Assembly (NCBI GenBank): GCA_963666515.2
Contig: OY762897.2
Location: 2,368,001 to 2,432,000, forward strand
Source of the DNA: Candidatus Binatia bacterium
GTDB taxonomy: Bacteria > Desulfobacterota > Binatia > UBA9968 > JAJDTQ01
Direction: 5' to 3'
DNA length: 64,000 bases
Shown: in pieces, positions 2,176 through 63,521 of the stretch
Position numbering within the stretch: position 1 is the stretch's first letter
Layout of the letters: each line of letters begins with the position of its first letter
Program-made: the position numbers and the translations under genes
The notes under the pieces: generated by a model
Databases searched by the model: none
What the model was told of the DNA's origin: nothing
The model's input: the letters and a program-made list of their open reading frames with translations, nothing else

Positions 2176-2915
2176 CGACAGCACTCTTCTTCGAATTGTT
2201 CAGTGGGCTGCCGCGCCAGGGACCCGGTGACGCCTCCAGCACGCTCCGAGCCCTCTCTCTCGTTCCTGGCATCGGGGCAGAGACCCGTATTCTCGACGTC
2301 GGCTGCGGCACCGGCATGCAAACGCGGGTCCTGGCGCAGAACTCCCCTGCCCGCATCGTCGCCATAGACAACCATCCGCCGTTCATCGACGTCGTGAACG
2401 AGGAAGCACGCCGCCTCGGCCTCGCGGACCGTTTGCAGGCCCGTGTCGGCGACATGCGCCAGCTCGATTTCGCGGACGCCTCGTTCGACCTGATCTGGTG
2501 CGAGGGCGCCATCTACATCGCCGGCGTCGAGGCCGCGTTGCGCCACTGGCGCCGCCTGCTTGCGCCCGGCGGGCACGTGGCCTTCTCCGAGGTCTGCTGG
2601 ACGAAACCCGACCCGCCGGAGGAATGCGCGTCGTTCTGGAAACGGGAGTACCCGGCGATGCGCGAAGAAGAGGGACTCCTGAGCGCAATCGACGCGTGCG
2701 GTTACGAGACCGTCGGGCACTTCATGCTGCCCAAGTCCGCGTGGTGGGACGACTACTACGGACCGCTTGAACGGAACGCAACGGCGTTCCGAGCGCGTCA
2801 CCGCGGGCGTCTCAATGCGCAGGAGCTGGCCGATGAAACTCAGCGCGAGATCGACGTCTGGAAGAGCTACTCGGACTACTACGGCTACGCGTTCTTCGTC
2901 GCGCGCGTCCGGTAA
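2172..2915 (+). CDS. Class I SAM-dependent methyltransferase
   Basis: ILDVGCGTG and FDLIWCEGAIY motifs. 4-nt overlap with the upstream stop. Confidence 0.9.
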   Translation: MTTALFFELFSGLPRQGPGDASSTLRALSLVPGIGAETRILDVGCGTGMQTRVLAQNSPARIVAIDNHPPFIDVVNEEARRLGLADRLQARVGDMRQLDFADASFDLIWCEGAIYIAGVEAALRHWRRLLAPGGHVAFSEVCWTKPDPPEECASFWKREYPAMREEEGLLSAIDACGYETVGHFMLPKSAWWDDYYGPLERNATAFRARHRGRLNAQELADETQREIDVWKSYSDYYGYAFFVARVR

Positions 2916-2943
2916 TGCACACGGACGTGTCGGAGACCGGCGA

Positions 2944-4500
2944 TCACACCCGCTCTACCTCCATCCCCACCACGTTGCGGGTCTCCCGGCTGAACTCCAC
3001 GCCGACCAGCCAGATGGGCCGGCCCAGGCCGCGGTGCTTGTCCGCGTAGCCCCGCTCCTTCAACTGCGCCATGGCCGAGCCCTTCTGCCCTTTGTCCGTG
3101 TTCTCCACGACCTTGAACTCGAACAGGTAGACGTTGTCATTGAAGCGCACGCTCATGTCCAGCCGGCCGCTGCTGCTGCTGTCTTCGACGGTGGTGTCCA
3201 GACCGAGGGCGCAGAACCAGGAATAGAAGACACTGGCATAGTAGCCTTCGTAGTCGGCGATGCGATTGTTTACGTGCCACTGGTACGGGATGCTGCTGAA
3301 AAACGCCTGAAACAGCGTTTCGAGACCGGCGAAGTCGTTGGCGGAGAGCAGCTCGTACAACCGGACGTCGTGCTCCCCCTGCCGGGATGGATCGGGTCCG
3401 GTGGCGCGCAGCAGATGCTCGTTGAGGCTCTGTTTGACTTCCTGGTTGGGATAGCCCAGGCGATACAGGGACTTGCCTCCCAGTTTCCTTTCCTCCGCGA
3501 TCGTCAGGTAGCCGGTCTGGAACAACAGCGCCTCGGTGGCGATGTCGTCCACATCGAACCGCGACAGGAGGTCGTCGGTCCCCATCATTTCCTCGAGAGC
3601 CAGGGAGCTGACGCGCCGCCCGAGAAGCGTCTCCACCAGAAACGACGGGGAGCCGGTCTCGAACCAGTGGGCCTTGAACTTGCGGGTGTCGAAGAGCAGC
3701 AGGATATCGAACGGGTTGTACACCCTCTGCTCCCCCAACCAACTGTAGCCGTTGTACCAGCGGCGTATCTCGTCACGGTCCAGGCCGGGGAGTTCCGGCG
3801 CGAACACCCGATCCAGGTCGGCGTCCGAATAGCCGCAGACCGCGGCGTAGCGCGGGTCCAGGGTCATGTCCTGGAGGTTGTTGAGTCCCGAAAACAGGCT
3901 CACCTTGGAAAACTTGCTCACGCCGGTGAGGAAGACGAAGCGGATGTGGGCGTCGCAGTCCTTGATGACTGCATAGATGCCGCGCAGGAAGTCCCGGTTC
4001 GATCGCGCCGACTCCGGCGCGTCCAGCGCGTCGAGTATCGGCTTGTCGTACTCGTCGACCAGCACTGCCACGGGCTGTTTCGCGCGGCGGTGCAGGTCTT
4101 CCAGCAGCGACGCGAAACGTCCCGCCGCGGTCGTATATTCGGTGACGGCCCCCGATCGCCGTTCGGCGGCGGCGAGTTGCTCCATCACGTGCTGACGCAG
4201 GTAATCGGGCTCCTTGAAGTTGCCGCTGCCGAAGCTCAGGCGCAGCACCGGATGGCGGACTGACCAGTCCCACGAATCATGGATATCAAGCCCCTCGAAC
4301 AGGGCCTCGTTGCCCTCGAACAACTCCTTCAGCGTGTCCAGGAACAGGCTCTTGCCGAAGCGTCGCGGGCGCGACAGGAAGAAATGCGAGCCTTGGTCGA
4401 CCAGCGCTCGAATCCAGGGCGTCTTGTCCACGTAGTAGTGGTCCTGCTCCCGGATCTTGCGGAAAGTCTGAATACCGATGGGAAGCCGTCGTCTGGTCAT
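2944..4500 (-). CDS. AAA-ATPase-like protein with C-terminal PD-(D/E)XK nuclease (PDDEXK_9-type)
   Basis: LPIGIQTF, YYVDKT, SRPRRFGKS (Walker A), LVDEYDKP (Walker B), GRLDM...LFEFK. Start placed at MTRRRLPIG (4500). Confidence 0.9.
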   Translation of the reverse strand: MTRRRLPIGIQTFRKIREQDHYYVDKTPWIRALVDQGSHFFLSRPRRFGKSLFLDTLKELFEGNEALFEGLDIHDSWDWSVRHPVLRLSFGSGNFKEPDYLRQHVMEQLAAAERRSGAVTEYTTAAGRFASLLEDLHRRAKQPVAVLVDEYDKPILDALDAPESARSNRDFLRGIYAVIKDCDAHIRFVFLTGVSKFSKVSLFSGLNNLQDMTLDPRYAAVCGYSDADLDRVFAPELPGLDRDEIRRWYNGYSWLGEQRVYNPFDILLLFDTRKFKAHWFETGSPSFLVETLLGRRVSSLALEEMMGTDDLLSRFDVDDIATEALLFQTGYLTIAEERKLGGKSLYRLGYPNQEVKQSLNEHLLRATGPDPSRQGEHDVRLYELLSANDFAGLETLFQAFFSSIPYQWHVNNRIADYEGYYASVFYSWFCALGLDTTVEDSSSSGRLDMSVRFNDNVYLFEFKVVENTDKGQKGSAMAQLKERGYADKHRGLGRPIWLVGVEFSRETRNVVGMEVERV

Positions 4501-4552
4501 GGAAGTTCGGAACTGCCAGCCTCTGTGTAGCCGGCGAGTTTGTCCACCAAGT

Positions 4553-5314
4553 CTACCTGGACCACCATCCTGTTCGTCTCTTGAGTTCGGTCTCAAGTTC
4601 ATGCAGCGCTTGTGCCTTACGTTCCCGCGACTCGCCGTCCCATTCCGTTTCAGCGAATTCATGCAAATGGTCGACCAGAAACTCCGTAATGCGGTTCTTG
4701 TTGCAATCCCGGTTTGCAGCGCAGTAATCCGAAAGTGATTTCGTCAACTCCTTGGCTGTCTTGCCTGACGCATCGCCCACACATTGTTCTATCGCGAACT
4801 CTACGAAGTCCGGAGCGTACCCCCATTCCTCCACGTAGTAGGACACGATGCCTTCTTTTTCTTCTCCACTCACCTCTCCGTCGTCGGACCTTGCGATCCA
4901 GATACTGAGGGGCAACATGAGACCCATCAGCTTGTCGGCCAGCAGGTGCAACGGCGTGTTGACGTACTTGGGGAATTGGACTAGGATATCATCCCTCACC
5001 TTGTCGAGCTTTCGCCTTATGCCGTAATACGCGCCCCCGGCGAGAACACCGGCCGCAAGTACCCACCCGATTGGCGTCGTAGCGGCAGCACCCAAGCCGA
5101 TCCAAGCGAGCAGGCCGCTGGAGGGAAAGAACGTGGTAGCAACCACGGAACTCGAGGCGATCATCGTTCCACCGGAAGCAGCGCCTGCAGTCCCCAATAT
5201 GTGTTCCAGGTTGCGCGCCGATTTCAAGAATCTGTAGCAATCCTCCCCGACACCGAGCCGTTGCTTGAATATCAACTCGTTCGCAAGAATTGCCTCAGGC
5301 TCATCCCTCATCAT
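4553..5314 (-). CDS. Membrane protein with Gly/Ala-rich hydrophobic hairpin and TerB-like C-terminal domain
   Basis: Hydrophobic GLGAAATTPIGWVLAAGVLAGGAYYG segment, then IARSDDGEVSGEEKEGI resembling the TerB A-x-DG-x4-E motif. Confidence 0.6.
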   Translation of the reverse strand: MMRDEPEAILANELIFKQRLGVGEDCYRFLKSARNLEHILGTAGAASGGTMIASSSVVATTFFPSSGLLAWIGLGAAATTPIGWVLAAGVLAGGAYYGIRRKLDKVRDDILVQFPKYVNTPLHLLADKLMGLMLPLSIWIARSDDGEVSGEEKEGIVSYYVEEWGYAPDFVEFAIEQCVGDASGKTAKELTKSLSDYCAANRDCNKNRITEFLVDHLHEFAETEWDGESRERKAQALHELETELKRRTGWWSR

Positions 5315-5342
5315 GTGACGCTCCCCCGTATTGATTACCCCT

Positions 5343-5900
5343 TCACACCTCTGCGTTCACGATTGCAAAGGGCTGAAGCGCTTCCCGGGCGGCGTGCCCG
5401 ACTGGCTCGTTCATCAGGATTTTCATTACGTCGGACTCTTGACTACCCTCCGCCTTGTCGGCCTGTTCAACCCCCCCGGCGGCTTTGTTCGCGCGATCTG
5501 TCAGCCAATCCTTTACAAAAGCGTAAAGCAACTGGATCGCCGCGAAAAGCGGGACAAGTATCGGCGCCAACCAAGGAGCAACCGTGGAAAGAAGCTCGCC
5601 AACCAGCCACATGACGACGGCAAAAGTGGTATTCGGGTATCGCTTGCGGAGATCGAGCACAATCTCAAGAACTCGCCTGCCAATGTACAGCACGGCGTTT
5701 CCGATCCTAACCGTGGCGTTCATGAGCGAATCGAGCAGTGCCTTGACATCGGCAGGAACCGACAGCTTGCCGATCTTCCGTTCCAGGTCTTTTCTGGAAA
5801 CCCTGGGTCTGGCTTCACGAACAAGCCGGTCCAATTCCTCGAGGGATATTTCGACGGCGATATCTTCGCCGGTTGCCGGATTGACAGCTTTAGCCTGCAT
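5343..5900 (-). CDS. Hypothetical membrane protein
   Basis: GGAG RBS before ATG 5900 (MQAKAVNP). Helical N-terminus and two hydrophobic segments. Co-oriented 28 nt upstream of the TerB-like gene. Confidence 0.6.
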   Translation of the reverse strand: MQAKAVNPATGEDIAVEISLEELDRLVREARPRVSRKDLERKIGKLSVPADVKALLDSLMNATVRIGNAVLYIGRRVLEIVLDLRKRYPNTTFAVVMWLVGELLSTVAPWLAPILVPLFAAIQLLYAFVKDWLTDRANKAAGGVEQADKAEGSQESDVMKILMNEPVGHAAREALQPFAIVNAEV

Positions 5901-6320
5901 TGACAACTCCAGGACCATGAGGTGCTTGGTGGTACACCAAGAGCCATGTCTCGCACACCGGCGACGAAGGGTCAACCCGGGTCAACCAGCGGCCGGGCAG
6001 TGGCGGCGGCAGAATGGGACCGACGAGACCCCGGAATGGCGCCCTTCGACTTCCGGCCGCTGGGTGTCGTGAAGTCTGTCCTGGGCTGGCGAAGGGCTCG
6101 GGACGAATGGGTGGATTGGCGACTGGCTCAGCAACGCTTGGTATCCGTGGCTGTGACGTGGTACCCTCGCTTCCGCATGACCGGCAAGGCGTGCCCGGTC
6201 AAGTTGGAGCTGAAGAGCAGCACTGACGCCAACGGATACCACATATGGGTCGGCGTGGGCGGCGCATCGGCGGGGATTTCAACAACCATACGCACAACGT
6301 CCTTGCGTTGGAGGTGAAGC

Positions 6321-7559
6321 ATGGGTGAAGGCTGGCGGAATTTCATCAGGTACATCTGCTCAACAGACGCCATCCTTGCAGGCGTCCTTCTGGCCCTGAC
6401 AATGCTTTCCTTCCACGGCGCGTTGGACGACCTCGCCCATAAACGCCTTAGTGATACCACAAAGGAGTCCGTCGGCATATATGCTTTGGCCAGAGCTACT
6501 AACGCCAGCATTTCGGTGTTGCAGAGTTCCGAGGTCGGCATGGCGCTTGTCGGTAAGGTATCCGTGAAGCTGGGCGAGGTGCTCGACCCGATAAACGATG
6601 CGATCGAAAGACTTTCGTCCATAATGCTGTGGGCCATTGGCTCGCTGTTGCTCCAGCGTCTGGTGCTTGAAGTGACTTCGACGGCTGTTTTTCGGTGGGG
6701 GTTCTTCTGTATCGGCCTTGTGGCGTTTCTGGCGCTGTTCCTTCCGGCATGGAAACCCTGCCGGGAATTAGTTCGCGTCAGGTTCCAGATTTCCGCTGTG
6801 AGCTTGGCCCGCTGTCGCGACCTGCTCGTCCGGATTTTCGTCGTCGGTGCCGTCGTTCGTTTTATTGTCCCAAGCTTTGTCCTCGTCAGCATTATGGCCG
6901 CCGAGATGTTCCTCGGAACCACCATCCAGGAACATCGAGATCGCTTGTCGGTCTTGAGCGCCGATGCCGGAGCAGGTTCGCCGGTGGCCGGCAATCGGAG
7001 CTTGGCAAGTCAGAAGGAAGATATGTCGATCAAGTTGAACACCCTGCAAGCCGCCATGGAGGAGCACCAACGGGAAAAGCAGCGCCTGGACGACGAAATT
7101 CGAAAGATTCAGGAAGAGGTGGGCTGGCGCGGCTGGGCTTTCGTACCTGAATTCCTTGGCGGTGTATCGCCGGGAGAGGAACTGCTGAATAAGCGCGAGC
7201 AAGTCAGCGGCGCCGTCGAGGATATCCAGACGCAGGTCGATCAGAACAGGGACGATCTTCAATGTATCGAGCGCCAGATGGCAGGCGAGACGTGCGGTTC
7301 GTTGTTCGACAAGTTGTCCGGGGCCGGCAAAGCCGGTTACGGCAGGATCGCATCCATTGTAGAAAAAGCGAGCAACTGGGCGACGAGCATCGTCCGGCTC
7401 TCGATTGCAATCGTGATCAAGAACGTCCTGTTCCCGATCATTTTTCTGGTGATCGCCATGAAATGCAGCCTTCCCTTCATCCGGTACGCAATGAGGAAAT
7501 GTTCCACATGGCCGCGGGATCTGAATGAATTGCCGAATTCCCTGAGACAGTTGGATTGA
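6321..7559 (+). CDS. Hypothetical multi-pass membrane protein with coiled-coil insert
   Basis: GGAGGT RBS, several TM segments, ARATNASISVLQS...GEVLDPINDAIERLSSIML block, heptad-rich central region. Confidence 0.7.
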   Translation: MGEGWRNFIRYICSTDAILAGVLLALTMLSFHGALDDLAHKRLSDTTKESVGIYALARATNASISVLQSSEVGMALVGKVSVKLGEVLDPINDAIERLSSIMLWAIGSLLLQRLVLEVTSTAVFRWGFFCIGLVAFLALFLPAWKPCRELVRVRFQISAVSLARCRDLLVRIFVVGAVVRFIVPSFVLVSIMAAEMFLGTTIQEHRDRLSVLSADAGAGSPVAGNRSLASQKEDMSIKLNTLQAAMEEHQREKQRLDDEIRKIQEEVGWRGWAFVPEFLGGVSPGEELLNKREQVSGAVEDIQTQVDQNRDDLQCIERQMAGETCGSLFDKLSGAGKAGYGRIASIVEKASNWATSIVRLSIAIVIKNVLFPIIFLVIAMKCSLPFIRYAMRKCSTWPRDLNELPNSLRQLD

Positions 7560-7741
7560 GGCGCGGTCACGACCGCCACAGCCGGACAAGGGGCCGGGCA
7601 GTCGTCAGAAAGCTGGGGAGACCGGAAAGTCACCCGTGCGTACCAAGGTTCAGAAATGGAGCAACGGCAAGGGAATTCGGTTCACGAAGGCCCTACCGGA
7701 CACGGCAGGGCGGACGCCGCCCGCCGATAAAACCTGTCCGT

Positions 7742-8359
7742 CTAATCCGGGGCGTCGAACACCGCGGCTACGTCAGCGACGAATCCTTCGAGCAGCGGCG
7801 AGGTAGCGTTGTCACCGCGGCGGAACACGCCGTGCTCGACGTAGGCGGCGCCTTCGAGAGTGAGGACCGTGATGGTATCGTCACGGGGGTCTACTATCCA
7901 GTACTCCGGGATGCCGCCCTCGGCGTAGTCGGCGCGCTTCTCCACCAAGTCCCGTTCCGGGTCGTCGGGGCTCACGACCTCGGCTACCAGGTCCGCGCCT
8001 AGCCAGTAGCGGTCCTGATAGCGTGGATCCGAACGACGGCGCAGGAGCAGTATATCCGGCTCGCGGAACTTGCCTTCGCGGATGCGCATGCGTAGCGCCG
8101 AAACCATGGCGACGCCGCCGAGCGGCCTGAGGTAGTCGCGGAACAGTTCATAGAGGAACAAGAGGATGGCTTGGTGCGTGGACGTGGGCATGGGCAGTTC
8201 CTCGATGTAGCCATCGGTGAATTCAATCAACCGGCGGCTGTAGTCCGTGAGCCACAGATAGCCCTCGTCATTCCAGGCTCCCTGGCGCGGCAGGGTCTCT
8301 CGCAACAGGGCATTCAGCGCTTCCTGCGAGGAGTCCGCGGGTCCTGTCATCCTGGTCAT
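7742..8359 (-). CDS. Uma2 family endonuclease
   Basis: IEFTDG, PTSTHQ, REPDI, DLVAEVVSP, KRADYAEGGIPEYWIVDP. Confidence 0.92.
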   Translation of the reverse strand: MTRMTGPADSSQEALNALLRETLPRQGAWNDEGYLWLTDYSRRLIEFTDGYIEELPMPTSTHQAILLFLYELFRDYLRPLGGVAMVSALRMRIREGKFREPDILLLRRRSDPRYQDRYWLGADLVAEVVSPDDPERDLVEKRADYAEGGIPEYWIVDPRDDTITVLTLEGAAYVEHGVFRRGDNATSPLLEGFVADVAAVFDAPD

Positions 8360-8400
8360 GCCTTCATCCCTTCGTGTTGCAGGCGTCTACAGAGGCTACC

Positions 8401-9615
8401 CTACACCAGCACCCCCTCCTCTTTCCACTTCGCGATGGCGGCGGCGTCGTAGCCGAGCACGTCTCGCATGACCTGCTCGGTGTGCTCGCCGAGGTTCGGG
8501 GTGAGGGGGATCTCATCCTCGGGCTGGTCCTTGAAGATGATCCCGCCGCGGGGCAGCTCGAAGGGGCCGATGGGGGAGTCGTCGTACTTCTGGAAGTAGT
8601 CCCGGTGGCGGAGCTGGGGGTCCTTGCAGAGGTCGGTGCCGTTCTGGACCACCCCGGCGGGGACGCCGGCGGCCTGGAGGCGGTGGGCCACGTCCTCGAC
8701 GGTCTGGGTGGCGAGCCAGTCGGACATGATGGCGTCCAGCTCGCCGGCATGGCGGCGGCGCTCGACGCAGGTGGCGAAGCGGCTGTCTTCCGCCAGCGCC
8801 TCGTTGCCCATGACGCCGCACAGGCGGCGCCACTCGTCATCGTTGTTCACCGACACCACGCACCAGCGCTCGTCGCCCTGGCAGCGGTAGCAGCCGTGGG
8901 GGGCGGCGGTGAGGCTCCGGTTCCCCTGGGGTTCGGGGTCCACGCCGTTGATGCTGGATTCCAGGTAGCTGGGACCCAGGGTATAGGCGGTGACCTCTCC
9001 CTGGGACACGTCGATGATGGAGCCCTTGCCGGTGAGCTTCTGGCGCAGCAGCGCGGCCATCATGATGGTGGGGGCGGAGATGAAGCCGAGGTGGTCCGGA
9101 TAGACGCCCTGGCTGCCGATGGGGCGGTCCTGTCCCGGATGGTTCCAGAGGTAGGTCATGCCGCTGAAGGAATTGAGGTTGAAGCCCCAGGTGCCGTACC
9201 AGTTCTTGGGTCCGGTCTCGCCGAGCCCGGGCAGCTTGAGGATGATGATGGAGGGATTGACCTTCCTCAGCTCGTCGTCGCCGAGCCCCAAGCGGCCCAG
9301 CACCTGTGGCCGGAAGTTCACCAGCACCGCGTTGGACCTGGCCGCCAGCTCCTTGATGATGCGCTTGCCGTCGTCGTGCTTGATGTTGACGGTCATGGAC
9401 CGGATGGCCAGGTTGCACTCGATGAAGCGCGGCGCGGCGTTGATGTCGCCCTCCGCGCCATAGTGCCGGAAGGTGTCGAGCCCGCCGGGGTACGACTCTA
9501 CCTTGATGACCTCGGCGCCGTACTGCGCCAGCAACCGGCCGGCATAGGGGCCGGCGTATCCGGTGGTGAACGCGATGATGCGGACGCCTTCGAGAATCCT
9601 GCTGGGACTGGGCAT
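8401..9615 (-). CDS. CoA-transferase family III (CaiB/BaiF)
   Basis: LEGVRII, AGPYAGRLLAQYGAEVIKVE, NFRP, LGEHT motifs. Confidence 0.92.
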   Translation of the reverse strand: MPSPSRILEGVRIIAFTTGYAGPYAGRLLAQYGAEVIKVESYPGGLDTFRHYGAEGDINAAPRFIECNLAIRSMTVNIKHDDGKRIIKELAARSNAVLVNFRPQVLGRLGLGDDELRKVNPSIIILKLPGLGETGPKNWYGTWGFNLNSFSGMTYLWNHPGQDRPIGSQGVYPDHLGFISAPTIMMAALLRQKLTGKGSIIDVSQGEVTAYTLGPSYLESSINGVDPEPQGNRSLTAAPHGCYRCQGDERWCVVSVNNDDEWRRLCGVMGNEALAEDSRFATCVERRRHAGELDAIMSDWLATQTVEDVAHRLQAAGVPAGVVQNGTDLCKDPQLRHRDYFQKYDDSPIGPFELPRGGIIFKDQPEDEIPLTPNLGEHTEQVMRDVLGYDAAAIAKWKEEGVLV

Positions 9616-37137: not shown

Positions 37138-38919
37138 ATGATGTCCCCCTTGGCTGCACTGCCGGAAACCATCACCGCACCGCGCACGGACGCCGTCTAC
37201 AACTGTCACGCCTATCTCACGAAGGTGCCCATCGCCGCCATACGGCCCTTTGTCGAAGCACTCTCTGCTCCCGGAGATACGGTCGTGGACTTCTTCGCAG
37301 GCTCGGGGATGACCGGCTTGGCCGCCCTGATGACCGGCCGCAAAGCGGTCCTCAGTGACATATCCGTACTCGGACAGCACGTTGCCAAGGGCTATCTGGC
37401 CGATGTCTCGCCGTCCGCGTTCCGCCACGCTGCTGCTGCGGTGGTCGAGACAGCGCGCGGCGCGCTGGGCGATCTGTACAGGACCCGTCGGGCCTCTGAC
37501 AGTGCCATTGTGGAAATGGCCCGCACCGTATGGTCCTTTGCCTATATCTGCCCTGCCTGCGCCGAAGAGATCATCTATTACGAACACATCACACCCCGCA
37601 GCGGTCCCCCGGAACAATGCCCCTCATGTGGCGGGCCGTTTGCACGCCGGAACTGGTCACGGGCGGGAGATGTGCCGGTTGACGTCGTGGTGACCGGAGA
37701 AGAAGGCAAACTCACTTCACAGGAAGTTTCCGATATTGACCGGAAAATGATCGCAATCGCCGCGGCCGATCCCCGTCGCAATGATGTGCCGTCCCTCCCC
37801 ATCGACGAAACTCGGGAGATGTACAGCCGGTCGGGGCTTGGGAAAGCAGGTCTGACGGAAACAGTCCGGTTCTTCGCGCCAAGGAACGCTATAGCGCTTC
37901 TTGAGTTGTGGAGCGCCATTCAGGCATATGAAGACAATGACATCCAACGCAAACTGAGTTTCGCCTTTACGGCGATTCTTCCACGAGCTTCCCGGCGCTA
38001 TCAGTGGAGCGCCAAGCGCCCGCTCAACGCACAGAACCAGACCTATTACATCGCTCCAGTCTACTACGAGTGGAATGTCTTCGACCTTTTCTGTCGGAAG
38101 GTAGAGGCGGTCCTGCGGGCCGATCGGGAGTTGTTCGGCGGAAGGAGTGAACCACTGTTCCGTCAAGTGAAGGGGCAGGATGTCTTGTATCAACTCGCGT
38201 CAGCGCACCGCCTGCCACACTTGCCGGACACGTCGGTGGACTACATCTTCACCGACCCGCCTTTCGGCAGCAACATCTTTTACAGCGATATGAGCCTGTT
38301 CCACGAAGCCTGGCTGGGTCGAACTACGGACAACGAAAGCGAGGCCGTTATCCACACTACGGGCGAACGGAAGAACGGCGCGGCCGAGCGCTATGAGGAC
38401 ATTTTGCGCGGCGCGTTCACGGAGGCATTTCGGGTCCTGAAGCCGAGTCGGTACATGTCTGTGGTGTTCGGCAACAGTAACGGCAGTATTTGGGGCCTTG
38501 TACAGCGTGCCCTGCGAGCCGCCGGATTCACGGGCACGCCCGTCCATGTCGCCATCCTCGACAAGGGCCAACGATCGGTCAAAGGTCTGAATTCCGGAAC
38601 CGAGACCGTGGCCACGGTGGACCTCGTCCTTACGGTTCAAAAGCCGGCAGTTGCGCAGCCGTCCGTTCAGGCTCACACGCTATCAAGCGGCGATGCGGCG
38701 GCATTGATCCGGGAATCGCTCGCCAACCTGACCGTCGAGCAAACCCGCAACGCCAGCTATATCTACGTCGGAATCCTGCGGCGGGCCATCCAGAAACACC
38801 GGATTCTGGACGATCTGCATCTCGGTGATGTGCTTGTTGAGCTACGGCGCGCCGGCTACACAATCGACCGCAAGACCGGAATGTTGCACCGCGACCCTGC
38901 CACGGTAACCGCGGCGTGA
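37138..38919 (+). CDS. Amino (N6A/N4C) DNA methyltransferase with zinc ribbon
   Basis: YLTKVP, DFFAGSG (motif I), CPAC...CPSC, FTDPPF (motif IV). Confidence 0.88.
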   Translation: MMSPLAALPETITAPRTDAVYNCHAYLTKVPIAAIRPFVEALSAPGDTVVDFFAGSGMTGLAALMTGRKAVLSDISVLGQHVAKGYLADVSPSAFRHAAAAVVETARGALGDLYRTRRASDSAIVEMARTVWSFAYICPACAEEIIYYEHITPRSGPPEQCPSCGGPFARRNWSRAGDVPVDVVVTGEEGKLTSQEVSDIDRKMIAIAAADPRRNDVPSLPIDETREMYSRSGLGKAGLTETVRFFAPRNAIALLELWSAIQAYEDNDIQRKLSFAFTAILPRASRRYQWSAKRPLNAQNQTYYIAPVYYEWNVFDLFCRKVEAVLRADRELFGGRSEPLFRQVKGQDVLYQLASAHRLPHLPDTSVDYIFTDPPFGSNIFYSDMSLFHEAWLGRTTDNESEAVIHTTGERKNGAAERYEDILRGAFTEAFRVLKPSRYMSVVFGNSNGSIWGLVQRALRAAGFTGTPVHVAILDKGQRSVKGLNSGTETVATVDLVLTVQKPAVAQPSVQAHTLSSGDAAALIRESLANLTVEQTRNASYIYVGILRRAIQKHRILDDLHLGDVLVELRRAGYTIDRKTGMLHRDPATVTAA

Positions 38920-38938: not shown

Positions 38939-39748
38939 CTATCGACGCTCGCTCAGGAGCCTTACTGCATTCTCCCGCGTCAGCAACTCCACGTCCGCTT
39001 CCCGCTCCAGAAACGGGCGCACGTCCGCGGCCACCCGATCCCACGCCAGCGCGTCGAGGCGACCGCGGATCGTCGCCCGCCAGTTTTCGGGATGCAGCGC
39101 CTCGCCCGCCCAGCCGGTCTGACGCAACGCCGCGTTGAGCAGCGTGAGATTGGGCGCGGGCCACGCCGGGTCGCTCAAGTACCAGATCAGGTCGTACAGA
39201 TCCCGGCCCTTGGTATAGGGACGCTGCAAGAGCGCGTGCAGCTTGCCGGCGAGCAGCGAAGCGCGGTCGTGGTGGCGAAGCCGCAGCGTCACGTGGCGGC
39301 GCACCAGGCAGATCGCCAGGATCGCCCCTGCTGGAGGCCGGGTATCGACCTCGATCCTGATGGCGAGGCTTTCGTCCGGATGCGGTGAGAGTCCTGCCTC
39401 ATGCAACAGCCCCCGGAAGCGCACGAACGCGCTGTGATCCGGGTTCCGGTCACGCACCGCGAGGCCGACGGCGTAACCCTCGCGGGAGAGTTCCGCGCGG
39501 ACGGCCTTCAACCAGGCCCGCAGGTCATAGGCCTCGGGGTCGCCTTCAAGGGTGAAGTCGAGGTCTTCCGAGTAGCGCGGGAGGGCGAAGATAAAGCGCA
39601 GGCATGTGCCGCCCTGGAACGCCAGCGACATCATTGCCCCCTCTCGTTGCAGGACGCCCAGGATGCGCGCCTGAAGGTATTCGCGCGCAATGTTGCGGCC
39701 CTGCAACGGGCCGGCCGCCTGCATGAGATCCAGCAGATGGGCTTTCAC
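38939..39748 (-). CDS. abiEii: AbiEii nucleotidyltransferase toxin (type IV TA)
   Basis: FQGGTCLR, RYSEDLDF, KLHAL, KGRDLYDL. Confidence 0.92.
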   Translation of the reverse strand: MKAHLLDLMQAAGPLQGRNIAREYLQARILGVLQREGAMMSLAFQGGTCLRFIFALPRYSEDLDFTLEGDPEAYDLRAWLKAVRAELSREGYAVGLAVRDRNPDHSAFVRFRGLLHEAGLSPHPDESLAIRIEVDTRPPAGAILAICLVRRHVTLRLRHHDRASLLAGKLHALLQRPYTKGRDLYDLIWYLSDPAWPAPNLTLLNAALRQTGWAGEALHPENWRATIRGRLDALAWDRVAADVRPFLEREADVELLTRENAVRLLSERR

Positions 39749-40383
39749 AGCGCCTCGTAGGACCCGGTCCGGTCTTCCGCCAGGGAACGGACGTGTCGCG
39801 CCGCTCGCAACAGCTTGGGCTTGGCCGCGGCCTGCGCCAGACGGTCCAACTCGTCCAGGTCCAGCGCCTCCAGGTCCAACCGCAACTCATCGATGTACGC
39901 CGGTTCGTCGCCGCCGGGACACAGATGGACGACATCGAGCAACGCCTTCTCGGGCGAGGCCACGAACGCCGTCTGTCTCGGGCCGACATCGACCTCACGG
40001 TAGCCGTAAAGCAGATCGACCTTGACGTGACGAAAGGAAAAGCGGCCCAGCGCGGTCCGGCGAAGTTGCGGCCTGCCGGACGCTACGCTGGTAACCTCGG
40101 CGACGTATTCGGGAATGCAATGCGCATGCGCCAGCGCCGAAAGGCCGCTTACGTAAGACCCTCGCACAAGGCGGTTGGCGACCAGAAAGGGATGCGGTGT
40201 CCGTTTACGATACGGGGGAGCCAGCGCGTACAGCTCACGCCGTAGCCGGTGAATCCGCCCGGCGCGGGTCCAGCGGGCGAGCTGGTGCCTGACCCTTACG
40301 GGATCGGCCTCCCCGCAAAGAAGCAACCCCGTCTCGAACACCGGCTCGTCGGCAACGATTTCGAGCAATCGGTGAAACTTCAC
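39745..40383 (-). CDS. abiEi: AbiEi antitoxin / transcriptional regulator
   Basis: RLRRELY, SYVSGLSAL, ASPEKALLD. 4-nt overlap with abiEii. Confidence 0.88.
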   Translation of the reverse strand: MKFHRLLEIVADEPVFETGLLLCGEADPVRVRHQLARWTRAGRIHRLRRELYALAPPYRKRTPHPFLVANRLVRGSYVSGLSALAHAHCIPEYVAEVTSVASGRPQLRRTALGRFSFRHVKVDLLYGYREVDVGPRQTAFVASPEKALLDVVHLCPGGDEPAYIDELRLDLEALDLDELDRLAQAAAKPKLLRAARHVRSLAEDRTGSYEAL

Positions 40384-57924: not shown

Positions 57925-58100
57925 TTTTCTCCGACCTTTTCTCCGACCTTTTCTCCGACCTTTTCTCCGACCTTTTCTCCGACCTTTTCTCCGACCTTTT
58001 CTCCGACCTTTTCTCCGACCTTTTCTCCGACCTTTTCTCCGACCTTTTCTCCGACCTTTACCGACCTTTCTACCGACGTTTTACCGACGTTTTACCGACA
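57925..58100. repeat. 12-bp tandem repeat (TTTTCTCCGACC) x11 plus 4 degenerate units
   Basis: Perfect units at 57925-58056, degenerate TTTTACCGACG-type units to 58100. Confidence 0.97.
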
Positions 58101-58182: not shown

Positions 58183-59364
58183 TCAGATCGGCGGACGGCT
58201 GTTTTCGCCGTACCCCGTAAGTTCCACGTACCCCTGGCCGATGCGTTCACCGCTTTCGGATTCGACCCGGACCGAGCCTTCCCAGTAGAACAGGTTCGGG
58301 ATCAGGGCGCTGCGGTTCTCCTGATCCGGCAGCTTGGGGGTGATCACGGCGCTGATGCCGGCGGACGGGATGTCGAGGTCCCATCGACCGGGATAGGCCG
58401 CGCGCGAGACGGGGCTGGTCCATTCCGCGATGGCTTTCAACTTCCATTCATCGGGAAGCAGATAGCGGACGGCGCCCTCGGGGTCCACGAGCGTAGCGCC
58501 GGCATAACGGGTGCCGCTGTCGCGGTTTCGGAGGACGTAGAGCATGACCTCGCGGCCGTCGTCGAGTTGCAGGCTGAACCAGTCCCACCCTTGCGTGTCC
58601 CCGCCGAGCTGGTTGGAGCCGAATTCCTTGTCCATCCAGCTCGTACCGCTGACCTCCCACTCCTTTCCGTCCAAGCGGACCTTCCCCGTGGTGGCCATGC
58701 GGGTGAGGCTGTAGTAGTGGCTGGCCTCGGTGGCGCCCTCCCCTTTGCGGCTCAGGCCGCCGGGACCCTGGAACACCACGGGCTTGAGCGGACGGGTGGA
58801 GAGGCTGAAACCGAAGGACCGTCCGGTGTCGGCCATGGTGAAGTCGAAGCCCTTGCCGTTCCAACGGAGCTGCCATTCTCCTGGTGTCCCCGGGGGACCG
58901 ACACTCCAGGCTATGCGCGGCTCCGGGTGGCGGCCGAAGCCGGCCAGGAGCGGAGCCGCCCGCACCACCACCTCGCTGAACCGGTGGCGGCCGGTGTCCA
59001 ACTCAGTGACGGCGGCGTGGCCCATGATGATGTTGCCGGCGGCCCATGCGGAACCGGGCGGCGGCGCATCCTTCGACACGCCGATCCTGAAGAACGTGAA
59101 CTGGTAGCCCAGGCGCCGGGCGGGCTCCCCGGCGGTGCGCAGGTGGCCAGTGAAGTACCACCATTCGGTCTTGTAGCCGTCGCGTACCCAGTGGTCTTGC
59201 GGGAACGACCAGACGTAGCCGGGTCGGGCCGGGGTCCAGGCATAGGCCATAAAGTCGGACCACGACATGACGGGCAGCAGCACAAGAACGCACGTCAGTA
59301 GGCCGTTACGGCACCGACCATGCCCGAGGTCCCTGCGCTGAGGCCGAGACGACTTCGGGCTCAT
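58183..59364 (-). CDS. AttH/CrtC-like lipocalin-domain protein
   Basis: FPQDH, TEWWYFTG, GYQFTFFR, SHYYSLT, WMDKEF, GWDWF, YWEG, GYVELTGY. Start position uncertain. Confidence 0.88.
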   Translation of the reverse strand: MSPKSSRPQRRDLGHGRCRNGLLTCVLVLLPVMSWSDFMAYAWTPARPGYVWSFPQDHWVRDGYKTEWWYFTGHLRTAGEPARRLGYQFTFFRIGVSKDAPPPGSAWAAGNIIMGHAAVTELDTGRHRFSEVVVRAAPLLAGFGRHPEPRIAWSVGPPGTPGEWQLRWNGKGFDFTMADTGRSFGFSLSTRPLKPVVFQGPGGLSRKGEGATEASHYYSLTRMATTGKVRLDGKEWEVSGTSWMDKEFGSNQLGGDTQGWDWFSLQLDDGREVMLYVLRNRDSGTRYAGATLVDPEGAVRYLLPDEWKLKAIAEWTSPVSRAAYPGRWDLDIPSAGISAVITPKLPDQENRSALIPNLFYWEGSVRVESESGERIGQGYVELTGYGENSRPPI

Positions 59365-59520
59365 TACACACCTTGCATCTCTGCGCTGGTCGTAGGTGTT
59401 CTTTCGGCTGGGCATGATCTGTCTGTCGGCGTAGGACTCGAACCTTTCGACGAAGTAACAGGGTCGTCGGATTACCGCTCGACGGCTGGGGTCAGATAGG
59501 ACGCGAATTGTACTGAAACG

Positions 59521-61086
59521 TTACGACCGTCTAAATCGTTCCGTCTCCCGTCCTTGGGTGTTTGCCAACGGCAAGGACACTCCTCCTCGAGGCAGATCGC
59601 GTTCCCATATGCTCTTTCTGAGGCACTCGGTCGAAGGCGATAGGCCCTTGGCATATACGACATTGAGAATTGCTGGATCCTGCGCCAAATGGTTCTTGTT
59701 GGCTAGACGCGCTTCCCTAATCAGATAGATTCCCGCCCGCGCCGCGAGGTCGGAATTTCTCGCATCGTGCGCCATAGCTATGGCTCGCCGATAGTGGTGT
59801 TCGCCTTCTTCCAACCGGCCGCGGCGGAAGGCGATTAATCCCTCGGTCGCGGTGACACATATCCGGGGGGTTACGTTCTGGGCCGCACCTTGATTCTTGG
59901 CCACTTTTATGTCCGCCTCAGCCTCGTCGAGCCTGCCGACAGTGGCTAGGGCGAAGGCCCGGTTGTTCAGAAGCGGGAGGTGTCTCGGATTCGCCATGAG
60001 GCCGGCATCGGCAGCCTGGACAGCACCCTCATGATCGCCCAAGTGCGTGGCACGCAAGGATGACAGGGCTACGGCCGGCGTCGAGGCGAAGGGCTCCTCG
60101 TGGTACCAGGCTTTACATGCCGTTTCGGCCTCTCGCCACTGAAGCCTTGCGAAGGCATCACGGGCGCAGGCCTCCGCCGATCCTTTCAAGGCGTCAGGGC
60201 TTGGCACACGAATCAACTTATCGACGTCTCGGGCGGCCCACACCGTCTGCGCGAGACCCAACTCGGCGGGATCGACCACAGCAAGCTGGAACAATTTCCG
60301 CGCCAACCGATGTTTTCCGGCGGCTAGCTCAGCAGTGGCCACGGCCGCCGCGAGCTCGGAGACTTGAAACGGCGGCCGGCCTCCATGCTCAACCACTGCC
60401 AGGGCTCGGCGTACGAAGTGCGAGTGTTTACCAACGAGTTGAGAAAGACCGATTTCCGGTGCCATGAGCCAAGGGTCGGCGAGAAGAAGGGCAGGATCAC
60501 GCCGCAATGTGGCGAGCGCCTGCTCGGGTTTACCCATGTGTTGATAGAGACGGGCCTCGGCGCGGAGGATGAGTCGGTTCGAGGCTCCGGCAAGGCCTCG
60601 CGCTACGGTAAGCGCCCGTTTCGCCTTGGAATATTGTCCGCAGGAAGAGTGGGCCAACGCGAGGTCGAGCCATGCGAATCCGCTCTCACGAACATAGGGG
60701 TCGGCGATGCGGAACGCGTGGATGTCGTCCTTTGTAAGGGAGGTCGGCGTAGGGTGATCGACCGCCAGACCGAGGCAGCTATCGATCAGCCGACGGCCGC
60801 CGCCTAGGTTCTCGCCATAGTGGGCGAGGAATCCGGCTGCTTCCCGGGCCCTTTCAGGTACACCCTCCACCACTGCAATAGCGACGGCTTCGGCTGCGTA
60901 GGGAGCTGCACGATGCTGTCGGAATTCTTCCATAGCGCGCATAAGACCCACTTGCCGCACCTTGCCAAGTGGAGCGGTCTCTGTACTCTTCTCGGCGGTC
61001 AATGCCTCACCGAGCTGGACTGATCGGCCGACCGGTCTCCAACGAGGTATTATGTTCCGAGCCATTTCGCGGCCATCCAATTGCAT
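59521..61086 (-). CDS. TPR-like alpha-helical repeat protein
   Basis: RNIIPRW N-terminus; TPR-like AWLDLALAHSSCGQYSKA, LLNNRAFALATVGRLDEA, ATEGLIAFRRGRLEEGEHHYRRA. Confidence 0.8.
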   Translation of the reverse strand: MQLDGREMARNIIPRWRPVGRSVQLGEALTAEKSTETAPLGKVRQVGLMRAMEEFRQHRAAPYAAEAVAIAVVEGVPERAREAAGFLAHYGENLGGGRRLIDSCLGLAVDHPTPTSLTKDDIHAFRIADPYVRESGFAWLDLALAHSSCGQYSKAKRALTVARGLAGASNRLILRAEARLYQHMGKPEQALATLRRDPALLLADPWLMAPEIGLSQLVGKHSHFVRRALAVVEHGGRPPFQVSELAAAVATAELAAGKHRLARKLFQLAVVDPAELGLAQTVWAARDVDKLIRVPSPDALKGSAEACARDAFARLQWREAETACKAWYHEEPFASTPAVALSSLRATHLGDHEGAVQAADAGLMANPRHLPLLNNRAFALATVGRLDEAEADIKVAKNQGAAQNVTPRICVTATEGLIAFRRGRLEEGEHHYRRAIAMAHDARNSDLAARAGIYLIREARLANKNHLAQDPAILNVVYAKGLSPSTECLRKSIWERDLPRGGVSLPLANTQGRETERFRRS

Positions 61087-61104
61087 TGCGGTCTCTTTTC
61101 CAAT

Positions 61105-62250
61105 CTAGGCTGGTAGCGGCGACGGGCGCTTGAGACGCACCGACGCTTTCTTGCGTAGCAAGTCAAACCCGCTTATGAAGCGGGCGAGCCCGTAAGGTTG
61201 TTCGACGCCAATACGGTTTCGGCGATGACCGCGGCGTGCTGGATTCGGGTGACAGAGTTGATAGGTGAAATCGGTGTGGTCGTGCGCGATCTCGGGGGTG
61301 AGACGCCGGCTCATGTGAGTCTTGAACTCAGTCATCATGGCGCTGTATGCGTGTTCAAGGTGGGGAAGCACGGACTTAAAATCCCCGTACCAACCGCCCT
61401 GACAACGACGAGGCCGCATGCCGATAGAAAGACGATCTATAAGATCAGCGGTAGGGTTACCAAGACCGAAAAGGAAGAAGCTTAGGCTGCCGAGGTGATA
61501 GAGGTCCACGGCTAGCCGAGCTTCGCCCCACTCGGCCGCGCGGTAGCCGTAGAGGAGCTCTGGAGGGCTATAGTGGGGGTCACCGAATACAGTAAGGTCA
61601 TTCAGTTCGGGATGGGGACGATGCTGTCCGGTTGCCGATCCGACATCGCCGATCTTGCTAATCCCCTCGGTTTCGAAATGCATCACGTTGGATGGTTTTG
61701 TGTCCTGATGGGCGACACCGACGCCGTGGAGTTGGGCCAAGGCGGCTGCAACGTCTTTGAGGCAGTTGAACCGCCAAGCGTCGTTGATGCCCTCCGCTAG
61801 GCTGAGGTAAGCACGAACGTCGCCATCGGCCATTTCGAAGATGAGGTAATCGACGCGAGGAACTGGAAACTGACCATCTACCTCGACGCCGTTGGCCTCC
61901 AGCACGCGGACAACACGACTGAGCCTGTGTCGCTGGCAGAGGTCATATAGGAGGTCTCGTTCGAAGAGGTAGCGGTTGGTCATGGTAGCGAGCACATCTG
62001 GCGTGTGTGGTGTGCGAAAGGCCATATGATAGTCGAGCGCCTTCAGGAAAGCCGTTCGACCGTCAGCACTTTTGACCTCATATCCGAAGGAAAAGGTGGA
62101 CCCGCTTAGAGGTGCCGCGCCGTTCAGTTGATCACGGTCTCTTAAGATGCGGATAACTCGCCAGCCGCCAGGGAGTTCGGTCCCCTCAAGGGAAGCGGCA
62201 GCGACAAGCTCGCCGTCGATTGTGACCGGGTTCGGAATGTTGATCTTCAT
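61105..62250 (-). CDS. Hanks-type Ser/Thr protein kinase (soluble)
   Basis: GSTFSFGY loop, AFLKAL, HQDTKPSN, IGDVG, YSPPE, DLYHLG. ATG at 62250 overlaps the upstream TGA. Confidence 0.88.
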   Translation of the reverse strand: MKINIPNPVTIDGELVAAASLEGTELPGGWRVIRILRDRDQLNGAAPLSGSTFSFGYEVKSADGRTAFLKALDYHMAFRTPHTPDVLATMTNRYLFERDLLYDLCQRHRLSRVVRVLEANGVEVDGQFPVPRVDYLIFEMADGDVRAYLSLAEGINDAWRFNCLKDVAAALAQLHGVGVAHQDTKPSNVMHFETEGISKIGDVGSATGQHRPHPELNDLTVFGDPHYSPPELLYGYRAAEWGEARLAVDLYHLGSLSFFLFGLGNPTADLIDRLSIGMRPRRCQGGWYGDFKSVLPHLEHAYSAMMTEFKTHMSRRLTPEIAHDHTDFTYQLCHPNPARRGHRRNRIGVEQPYGLARFISGFDLLRKKASVRLKRPSPLPA

Positions 62251-63260
62251 GGCGTCTTCTCCGAGTAAGCGCGTTCGAGCCTGTCGCTGAGCCGACGCAT
62301 GAATGCAGGCAGTGCGGAAAGCGACGGATCCGGTAGCTCCATACCCAGGTAATGCCTGGCGATCCACGCCGCTTCCTGTGCTTGCGCATAGTCACGGGAG
62401 CGCTTGACGGGCTCGCGGTCGGCACGCTCCGAAACCCAAACTTTGTGTAGCGCGAAAGCACGTGGGTCAACGCACCAGCACCGAAGCGGGAAGCCGTCTT
62501 CGCCGATTACGACGCCGTTCACCTTTGGAGCGTTAACGAGCCACTCGAGACCCTCGATGCCGACGCCGATCAGATCTTCTGGGTTGGTGCCAGCGTCCAT
62601 GACCACATAAGGGTCTTCGACTGGGCGAATCAGATCAACCATGAAGCCTTCTCGGTTAATGGCTCGAAAGAACTGCCGACGGCTGCGCTGGAACGAGCGG
62701 TCAGCGCGCCTGAGGTAGCCGATTACCCCTGAGTGGCGGAAGTCTTTAACTGCCAGGATCAGACTTTGGCGGGCATCCCACAGGAGGTCGACGTCGACGG
62801 TCGCAAGCAGATCGCTTGTCAGGTGGACGCCCGCCAGAGCCTCGTAAAGGAAAAGGCTGTTCGTACCGATGACGAAAATGTTTTGCCCGAGAACCTGCGC
62901 GGCCGCGAGGTGACGGAGAATTCGGCTAGTAATGCGCGGAACGCGGTTCAGGCGAAGCGCACGGTTTACGGGCGCCATCTCTCTGAGACGCGCGCGTAGC
63001 GCGTGGCATCGTTTCCGCTCTGTGTCACGGCCGCTGCGGAACGCGCGGTAAATCTCCTCTGTCTCGTCGGTCTTTCGGCCAAGCGAGATTTCGCTGCTGG
63101 CTTTTTTTCGCAACAGGTAAAGATGGCCCTTCCGTTCGACCCACCGCATAGAGCCAACGAAACGCTGGGCGAGCTCAGCCTTTGATTCTTCCCACGCCTC
63201 GAAGGTCTGGACCACATCGACGAACTGTCGTCTTTGGGCGTTGTTGAGCTCTGCGAGCAT
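62247..63260 (-). CDS. GSU2403-like nucleotidyltransferase-fold protein
   Basis: GSMRW...YL, VIGTNSLFLYE, ATVDVDL, GFMVDLI, DPRAFALHKVWVS, KRSRD. Confidence 0.85.
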   Translation of the reverse strand: MLAELNNAQRRQFVDVVQTFEAWEESKAELAQRFVGSMRWVERKGHLYLLRKKASSEISLGRKTDETEEIYRAFRSGRDTERKRCHALRARLREMAPVNRALRLNRVPRITSRILRHLAAAQVLGQNIFVIGTNSLFLYEALAGVHLTSDLLATVDVDLLWDARQSLILAVKDFRHSGVIGYLRRADRSFQRSRRQFFRAINREGFMVDLIRPVEDPYVVMDAGTNPEDLIGVGIEGLEWLVNAPKVNGVVIGEDGFPLRCWCVDPRAFALHKVWVSERADREPVKRSRDYAQAQEAAWIARHYLGMELPDPSLSALPAFMRRLSDRLERAYSEKTP

Positions 63261-63290
63261 AGTCTACCCTACTAGGTTGTATTACCGCTA

Positions 63291-63347
63291 GTTTCCACTA
63301 TATCTGGAGATTTCTCGAAGTGTAGAGGAAACCAAAGGGTATTGCAA
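63291..63347 (-). promoter_or_regulatory. Sigma70 promoter with overlapping inverted repeat
   Basis: Minus strand TTGCAA(63347-63342)-17 bp-TACACT(63324-63319). The imperfect IR GTTTCCACTATA...TGTAGAGGAAAC (63291-63332) overlaps the -10. Confidence 0.6.
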
Positions 63348-63439
63348 GTAAAATAGTCGCAACTTATTGAGATAACTTTGATTCCCACTTTGAAGATTGA
63401 TTTTGTCTAAGGAAGGGGAAACCGGTCCGGCGGATCGTG

Positions 63440-63485
63440 CCCTTCGACTTCGCTCGGCTGGGCCTCGCTACGCTCAGGACGAACG
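63440..63485. repeat. REP-like element (CCCTTCGAC...GCTCAGGACGAACG type)
   Basis: CCCTTCGACTTCGCTC...CGCTACGCTCAGGACGAACG, intergenic just downstream of the permease. Confidence 0.55.
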
Positions 63486-63521
63486 AAAAATGGGTGACCC
63501 ACCTTTCCCGAGCCCCTTTCC

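Follow-up and report, generated by a model that had tools for sequence, protein, structure and literature searches.

A gene pair matching candidate phage defence family PDC-M71, joined to a PF12281 nucleotidyltransferase gene in a Candidatus Binatia genome

The window considered here, a stretch of 64,000 nt from contig OY762897.2 of Candidatus Binatia bacterium (assembly GCA_963666515.2), carries a 4.1-kb low-GC insert containing three minus-strand genes and their leader, and nothing else. In the order of transcription these encode a nucleotidyltransferase (NTase), a Hanks-type Ser/Thr kinase, and a tetratricopeptide repeat (TPR) protein (Table 1). By their profile matches, the kinase and TPR genes are a member of PDC-M71, a catalogued family of candidate anti-phage gene pairs, and their link to the NTase gene is best read as a lineage-specific operon fusion of uncertain meaning. 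The GC content of the insert is 0.588, against 0.669 in the remaining window, and that of third codon positions is 0.63–0.68 in the three genes, against 0.84–0.90 in the neighboring CrtC-like, dienelactone-hydrolase, and LCM-methyltransferase genes; the two genes directly flanking the insert were named from their Pfam matches. A sequence-only reading of the window had singled out the three genes for their shared orientation, less GC-rich DNA, and tight spacing, and these features are all present in the open reading frame (ORF) coordinates: the kinase ATG (62250–62248) shares the tetranucleotide ATGA with the NTase stop codon (62249–62247), and just 18 nt (61087–61104) lie between the kinase stop codon and the TPR gene. 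Its description of the genes as foreign in composition and defence-like in context is also upheld. None of the three proteins has a transmembrane-like segment (maximum Kyte-Doolittle 19-mer, 1.39), and neither NCBIfam nor PHROGs assigned any of them to a specific family. The only direct repeats flanking the insert are matches of 9–10 nt, taken as chance, and no tRNA or Rfam family was found in the window.

Table 1. Features of the insert and its leader, in window coordinates
Feature	Position	Strand	Details
Low-GC insert	59416–63521		Between a CrtC/lipocalin-like gene (58183–59415) and an FtsX/MacB-type ABC permease gene (ends 63522)
TPR-type helical repeat protein, PDC-M71B	59521–61086	-	521 aa; PADLOC PDLC04781; Pfam TPR_1/2/8
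Hanks-type Ser/Thr kinase, PDC-M71A	61105–62250	-	381 aa from ATG; PADLOC PDLC04780; Pkinase
GSU2403-family/PF12281 (NTP_transf_8) NTase-fold protein	62247–63260	-	337 aa; Pfam E 9.3e-49
Imperfect 42-bp palindrome, operator-like	63291–63332		20-nt arms 63291–63310 and 63313–63332, 75% complementary; overlaps the promoter-like site
Sigma-70-like site, TCTACA-18-TATAGT	63297–63326	-	9/12; from promoter scan; weak
Alternative promoter candidate, TTGCAA-17-TACACT	63319–63347	-	8/12; read by eye; below scan threshold

The kinase aligns with the PADLOC profile for PDC-M71A at E 4.8e-90 (300.5 bits), with residues 16–373 on profile positions 7–349 of 352. Pkinase is its sole Pfam domain (E 8.6e-13), and the protein is soluble with no extra domain. 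The residues invariant in 10 homologues include K70 (in AFLKA), E97, H181-Q-D183-T-K185-P-S-N188, D202 (in IGDVG), the PPE at 229–231, D249, and R340, which we take to be the VAIK lysine, the alpha-C glutamate, the HxDxKxxN loop, the DFG aspartate, the APE motif, the subdomain IX aspartate, and the subdomain XI arginine, respectively. This is the complete residue set of a Hanks-type Ser/Thr kinase, and it bears out the earlier description of a kinase with intact catalytic motifs and neither a transmembrane nor a sensor domain. Stk2 and PD-T4-6 are single-gene Hanks-kinase anti-phage proteins. They resemble the present protein in being soluble kinases with a complete catalytic core and a defence-type context, and by analogy phosphorylation leading to abortive infection is probably the logic of both. 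Membership in either family was rejected, as lower-ranking PADLOC kinase matches (PD-T4-6 at E 3.5e-11, mad6, MkoA, and Stk2 at E 2e-6) cover the catalytic core only (residues ~113–261 for PD-T4-6 and Stk2), and the PDC-M71 kinase, unlike these single genes, is accompanied by a TPR protein of ~520 aa.

The TPR protein matches PDLC04781 in two stretches (E 1.2e-86, the best being residues 131–466 on 145–478 of 515) and PDLC04782, also PDC-M71B, at E 4.8e-23. In an alignment of homologues there is an invariant R10-x3-P14-x-W16-R17 motif at the N-terminus, the repeats are conserved, and the C-terminal ~50 residues vary. A profile search with this partner family returned 2376 cluster representatives at E ≤ 1e-30; among the 150 matches listed, most are ~500–540 aa long and align end to end.

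PDC-M71 belongs to a set of 145 “phage defence candidates” (PDC) which, according to the accessible part of the source, were collected from genes lying inside BREX, DISARM, and type I restriction-modification (RM) loci and then added to PADLOC (10.1101/2024.01.29.577857); the “M” is assumed to stand for multi-gene. Both proteins here match their profiles over nearly their whole length, and the two genes lie in the order A then B on one strand with the same short gap, adjacency being judged from gene order rather than by PADLOC's own system rule. The three genes had been proposed as an unrecognised system, a claim that falls with these near-full-length matches to a catalogued candidate. A search of titles and abstracts for kinase, TPR, and anti-phage found no description of a pair of this type. 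By its accessible text, 10.1101/2024.09.26.614923 tested eight candidates, none of them PDC-M71, and the only kinases mentioned in the accessible text on DefensePredictor are HipA-type and nucleotide kinases. A likeness of architecture can be drawn with BcTir/BcTpr, where, in the part of the account available, an enzymatic effector gene likewise accompanies a separate TPR gene proposed to confer specificity, although the effector there is a TIR-domain protein and not a kinase (10.1101/2023.05.26.542521).

The kinase and TPR genes form a conserved two-gene unit across many phyla, plasmids, and predicted prophages. A genome scan with the kinase found 11 loci at 34–42% identity, in Chlorobiota, Bacteroidota, Caulobacter, Acidobacterium, Dongia, and others, and in all 11 the TPR gene is directly downstream. 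A metagenome scan gave at least 596 pattern matches and 360 relatives, of which the best 80 were kept; where at least 300 nt were available past the kinase, a TPR gene follows in 72 of 73 loci (64 by tblastn, and eight of the nine misses by a profile of the TPR alignment, at the N-terminus). It accompanies the kinase on 10 of 10 IMG/VR contigs as well. The pairing that the sequence-only reading put forward as a check holds at all but one of these loci with room. No kinase relative was found in the phage collection at E ≤ 1e-20. Three copies of the kinase are on plasmids, and in the two that were opened (Rhizobium etli pRetIE4771b and Deinococcus sp. NW-56) the next gene encodes a “hypothetical protein” of 523–536 aa. 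Near the plasmid copies are an integrase, a MarR regulator, TniQ and a recombinase, or transposases. Among 173 neighboring ORFs at 69 kinase loci, there were matches to type I RM specificity models (3/87 and 5/86), a mad2-type methylase (7/86), and a type I restriction endonuclease (2/87). These tallies, like those for the NTase below, use crude longest-ORF calls of at least 150 aa, take the two nearest ORFs on each side, and count per family rather than per locus. The association with defence genes is real but a minority one, consistent with how the candidate was found.

Binding between kinase and TPR protein is supported by a structural model. Over three runs the predicted complex scored an ipSAE of 0.88, whereas the best of three controls scored 0.00; in calibration, 58 of 80 solved complexes and 2 of 110 mismatched pairs attained the mark for this score, counts that apply only roughly here, own alignments having been used. 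The runs agree (at least 74% of contacts in common), with a partner pLDDT (predicted local distance difference test) of at least 84. Kinase residues 145–150, 186–187 (catalytic loop), 225–226 (just before PPE), and 258–312 meet TPR residues 19–138 and 165–172, and conserved columns are present on both surfaces. As modeled, the TPR protein would clamp the C-lobe of the kinase with its N-terminal ~170 residues, at the groove where substrate binds (alpha-D, catalytic loop, P+1 loop, and alpha-G).

The NTase was not found beside the kinase elsewhere: 0 of 11 genome loci, 0 of 80 metagenome loci (45 of which have at least 1100 nt upstream of the kinase), and 0 of 10 IMG/VR loci. The present locus differs from other PDC-M71 loci in this respect, its pair having no leader of its own and being joined through ATGA behind a PF12281 NTase gene seen with 0 of 101 other pairs. 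Within the genus, the NTase was found in five of 27 other species, at 86–93% identity, and a genus-wide scan found an intact kinase in just one of 28 species and a kinase fragment in only one of the NTase-bearing sisters. All five sister species have an intact NTase gene behind the same 163-bp leader, with the kinase reduced to its first 21–99 codons; these stubs meet the NTase gene in a GTGA junction and contain frameshifts. What follows the stub varies. In G022 and G015 (sister genomes are given by number, that of the window being G000) there is a gene for a 234-aa protein of no known family, then type I RM genes (HsdM, HsdS) and a Schlafen/AlbA_2-HATPase_c_4 gene; in G001 there are RM genes and the 234-aa gene is missing; in G020 there is a Schlafen-like gene alone. 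The pair has, so, repeatedly decayed or been replaced in the genus while the NTase stayed. The proposed three-part circuit of sensor, kinase, and NTase therefore does not stand as a conserved unit, given the absence of the NTase from all 101 pairs and its persistence without the pair in five sisters, and the fallback offered with it, a kinase-TPR core with the NTase as passenger, fits the strict synteny of the pair and the independence of the NTase.

Some further details of these sister loci may be recorded. The Schlafen/AlbA_2 proteins (456–512 aa; L020:2613–3992, L021, L022, and L024) also contain HATPase_c_4 and winged helix-turn-helix domains, are encoded beside or inside type I RM genes, and match pAgo-associated PADLOC profiles weakly (E 5.4e-16). 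The stubs in G020 (L022), G017 (L023), and G001 (L024) stop within a few nt of each other, after codon 29–31, and the DNA past them gave no match in an all-against-all blastn. The common endpoint could mark a recombination hot spot, or a single old deletion after which different DNA was inserted in each genome. In G000, G020, and G001 the NTase block separates the CrtC-like gene from the permease gene; in G022 (L020), G015 (L021), and G017 (L023) it lies beyond the CrtC-like gene, and the CrtC-like and permease genes are adjacent; because the sides differ, the block has moved or the locus has been rearranged within the genus.

The NTase itself scores 166.8 bits against PF12281, well within the family (cut-off 26.3). 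An N-terminal module of helix, three-stranded sheet, and helix (~1–105) is fused to the NTase domain (111–312), and the motifs noted in the sequence-only reading (GT...DVD and HK...KxxRD) are indeed there and conserved: G132-T133, D156-V-D158, H272-K273, and R289-D290, including hG[ST] and DxD, vary little or not at all across 32 homologues. An AlphaFold2 model reached a pLDDT of 90.3 with the 32-sequence alignment, against 34.3 from the single sequence. Foldseek comparison of this model with the PDB gave nothing at E ≤ 0.001, where Mimivirus poly(A) synthase (4wse_B, E 0.028) came first and terminal uridylyltransferases ranked lower; there was no match in BFVD, and the best match of the alignment profile among PDB sequences, a thymidylate kinase at E 0.033, is not meaningful. 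Since the structure searches gave nothing at that threshold, the NTase fold is assigned here from the Pfam match and the motifs. Neighbors in the ESM Atlas are exclusively clusters of GSU2403-family nucleotidyltransferase fold. No PADLOC family matched at E ≤ 0.1, and the protein does not qualify as a CD-NTase of CBASS; a literature search for PF12281, NTP_transf_8, and GSU2403 found nothing on the function of the family.

AbiE (AbiEi/AbiEii) is an NTase toxin-antitoxin (TA) system, and the NTase had been called AbiEii-like. Like AbiE and other NTase TA systems, it has a Pol-beta-type core (hG[ST], DxD), and ahead of some PF12281 genes there is a small ORF that overlaps them. At the family level the comparison fails: there is no PF08843 match (E ≤ 0.1), and hhalign against 11 AbiEii sequences gave E 0.2 over 43 columns. 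The AbiE system was rejected too, as there is no AbiEi-like gene upstream, where the leader extends to the permease gene, and here, unlike in AbiE, the N-terminal module is fused to the NTase. The window does contain a true AbiEii gene elsewhere (38942–39748; PF08843, E 1.9e-27), in a foreign-looking patch at ~35–39 kb (GC ~0.605), with an overlapping 212-aa ORF upstream (39748–40383) that has no Pfam match and is possibly an antitoxin, and an N6_N4 DNA methylase gene beside it (37138–38916).

In the phylum, PF12281 is found in 28 of 301 sampled genomes, at 30 places, and only at the window locus does a kinase adjoin it. A second copy in the same genome (G000:C1:516537–517154, L026; 358 aa, family E 1.3e-60) is ~26% identical to the window copy and belongs to the other main subfamily. 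At eight of the 30 loci the gene is split, with an ORF of 107–133 aa ahead of an NTase ORF of ~230 aa, the two adjacent or overlapping in a layout like that of a TA pair, and the 337-aa protein is therefore a fused two-part module. In these split loci (L041, L047–L052, and L055) the NTase ORF is 225–244 aa long, broken in L050 by a TGA stop, and one of the small ORFs has a weak hint of DUF6788 (E 0.004). Around 18 distant PF12281 copies (18 of 20 loci; L168 and L180 were dropped because ORF picking missed the NTase), no recurrent neighbor was found among 64 ORFs. Single matches were to a type I restriction endonuclease, DrmD, IetA, and SduA, the other neighbors being housekeeping genes.

The leader contains the palindrome, whose GTTTCC-N30-GGAAAC core occurs once in the window (0.07 expected) and is retained by each of the six genomes in the genus that carry the NTase. 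The sequence-only reading placed one sigma-70 promoter here with an overlapping inverted repeat. The inverted repeat, its conserved core, and an overlapping 9/12 site are all there, but the promoter is less secure: the scan that found it was not above chance (two sites in 4.3 kb, 1.0 expected), and the sister genomes do not conserve its –10 hexamer. The TTGCAA and TAnnCT hexamers of the alternative candidate are better conserved over the six genomes, and this may be the promoter instead. The NTase is possibly a TA-like or self-regulated module, a reading that would agree with the split loci, the palindrome over the promoter, and the persistence of the gene.

Taken together, the locus is probably two modules, a PDC-M71 kinase-TPR pair and an autonomous PF12281 NTase, made into one operon in this lineage. 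In an uninfected cell, the TPR protein would restrain a catalytically competent kinase, or be its first substrate, while the rest of the TPR solenoid would sense a phage protein. The kinase, once released or activated, would phosphorylate host or phage proteins and so stop the infection, probably through growth arrest (abortive infection, as for Stk2). The NTase would act separately, with no need for kinase or TPR protein. Both the anti-phage role of the pair and the sensing role of the repeats are drawn by inference.

A number of observations weigh against this account. As to the pair, the complex is a prediction; one metagenome contig of 2411 nt (L056) has 1214 nt past the kinase with an unrelated 176-aa ORF and no TPR gene; type I RM neighbors occur at a minority of kinase loci; and many kinase-TPR loci are among housekeeping genes. 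The only literature match to “pdc-m71” was a soil survey that reports it as indicative of calcareous grassland; as no experiment on PDC-M71 came up, its defence role rests on genomic context. No structural match at E ≤ 0.001 backs a TA-like reading of the NTase. As to the separateness of the modules, there is no room for another promoter ahead of the kinase, and with the ATGA overlap this means that kinase and TPR protein are expressed from the NTase leader. The kinase stubs in all five sisters indicate that the order NTase-kinase(-TPR) is ancestral in the lineage. Matches on equal-sized contigs (6029, 120498, and 5039 nt) suggest an intact trio in at least three further close relatives. Given the common leader, the ancestral NTase-kinase order, and these putative further trios, a functional tie specific to the lineage is possible.

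Other accounts of the pair or the trio can be set against the same evidence. The best placed of them, though we think it unlikely, is that the pair is a TA-like addiction or stabilisation module of mobile elements, with the kinase as toxin, the TPR protein as its neutraliser, and no phage sensing. The strict two-gene synteny with short gaps or overlaps, the predicted position of the TPR N-terminus over the substrate groove, and the copies on plasmids and beside integrases and transposases all fit such a module. It does not explain why the neutraliser should be so unusually large (~520 aa), with ~350 residues of conserved repeats unneeded for the predicted contact, nor the clean loss of the pair in five sister species; and the putative toxin gene comes first, an order atypical of type II TA pairs.

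A less likely account is a three-component system in this lineage, where the NTase would be a working third part that, for instance, regulates or neutralises the kinase by nucleotidylylation (type VII TA logic) or makes a signal read by the pair. The ATGA overlap and single leader speak for it, as do the NTase-kinase junction that all six genomes with the NTase in this genus retain, the equal-sized contigs suggesting the full trio on three further assemblies, and the same foreign composition in all three genes. On the other side are the 101 kinase-TPR loci elsewhere, none with the NTase; the five species where the NTase is intact and the kinase and TPR genes are not; the 29 of 30 PF12281 places with no kinase neighbor; and the TPR protein, which by the model already supplies a regulatory surface on the kinase. 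To a more elaborate form of this idea we would give little credence: the NTase would head the operon behind a palindromic operator, control the PDC-M71 kinase (for example, by type VII antitoxin-like nucleotidylylation of the kinase or TPR protein), and act as an addictive anchor, the common stub breakpoint of three species being a cassette-exchange point. Such an anchor would account for the survival of the NTase where its cargo is lost or exchanged for type I RM or Schlafen-like genes. Least likely is ordinary cellular signalling by a Hanks kinase and TPR scaffold (PknG-type) that is horizontally mobile by chance, which would suit the many loci among housekeeping genes and the TPR scaffolds that, in the accessible part of PMC8546545, couple signals to bacterial Ser/Thr kinases, but not the patchy distribution (a single intact copy in the 28 species of the genus), the foreign GC content, the presence on IMG/VR contigs and plasmids, the type I RM neighbors, or the ORF lists of the 11 genome loci, where no phosphatase or recurrent target gene was noticed.

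Two other features of the window can be mentioned. Between the dienelactone hydrolase and CrtC-like genes, at 57925–58093, is a 12-nt tandem repeat (TTTTCTCCGACC; 14.3 copies, 93% matches), which gives rise to spurious plus-strand ORFs encoding repeat peptides. The lowest GC content of the window (~0.586) is at 2400–9000, a region with a gene for a Uma2-family putative restriction endonuclease (7745–8359) and a pair of ORFs (210 and 412 aa) that lack a Pfam match.

With the locus read as two modules, what appeared to be a new three-gene system resolves into a pair already catalogued and, unrelated to it, a gene of an uncharacterised NTase family that merits study of its own. For PDC-M71, what is gained is a near-absolute kinase-TPR synteny across phyla, plasmids, and predicted prophages; some 2400 clusters of TPR partners, fairly uniform in length among the matches listed; and a structural model that would place the conserved N-terminal region of the partner on the substrate groove of the kinase. 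Should its defence function be borne out, the pair would have a kinase as effector and a separate repeat protein as sensor, and could serve as a simple model of how Ser/Thr kinases in bacteria stay inactive until a phage infects.

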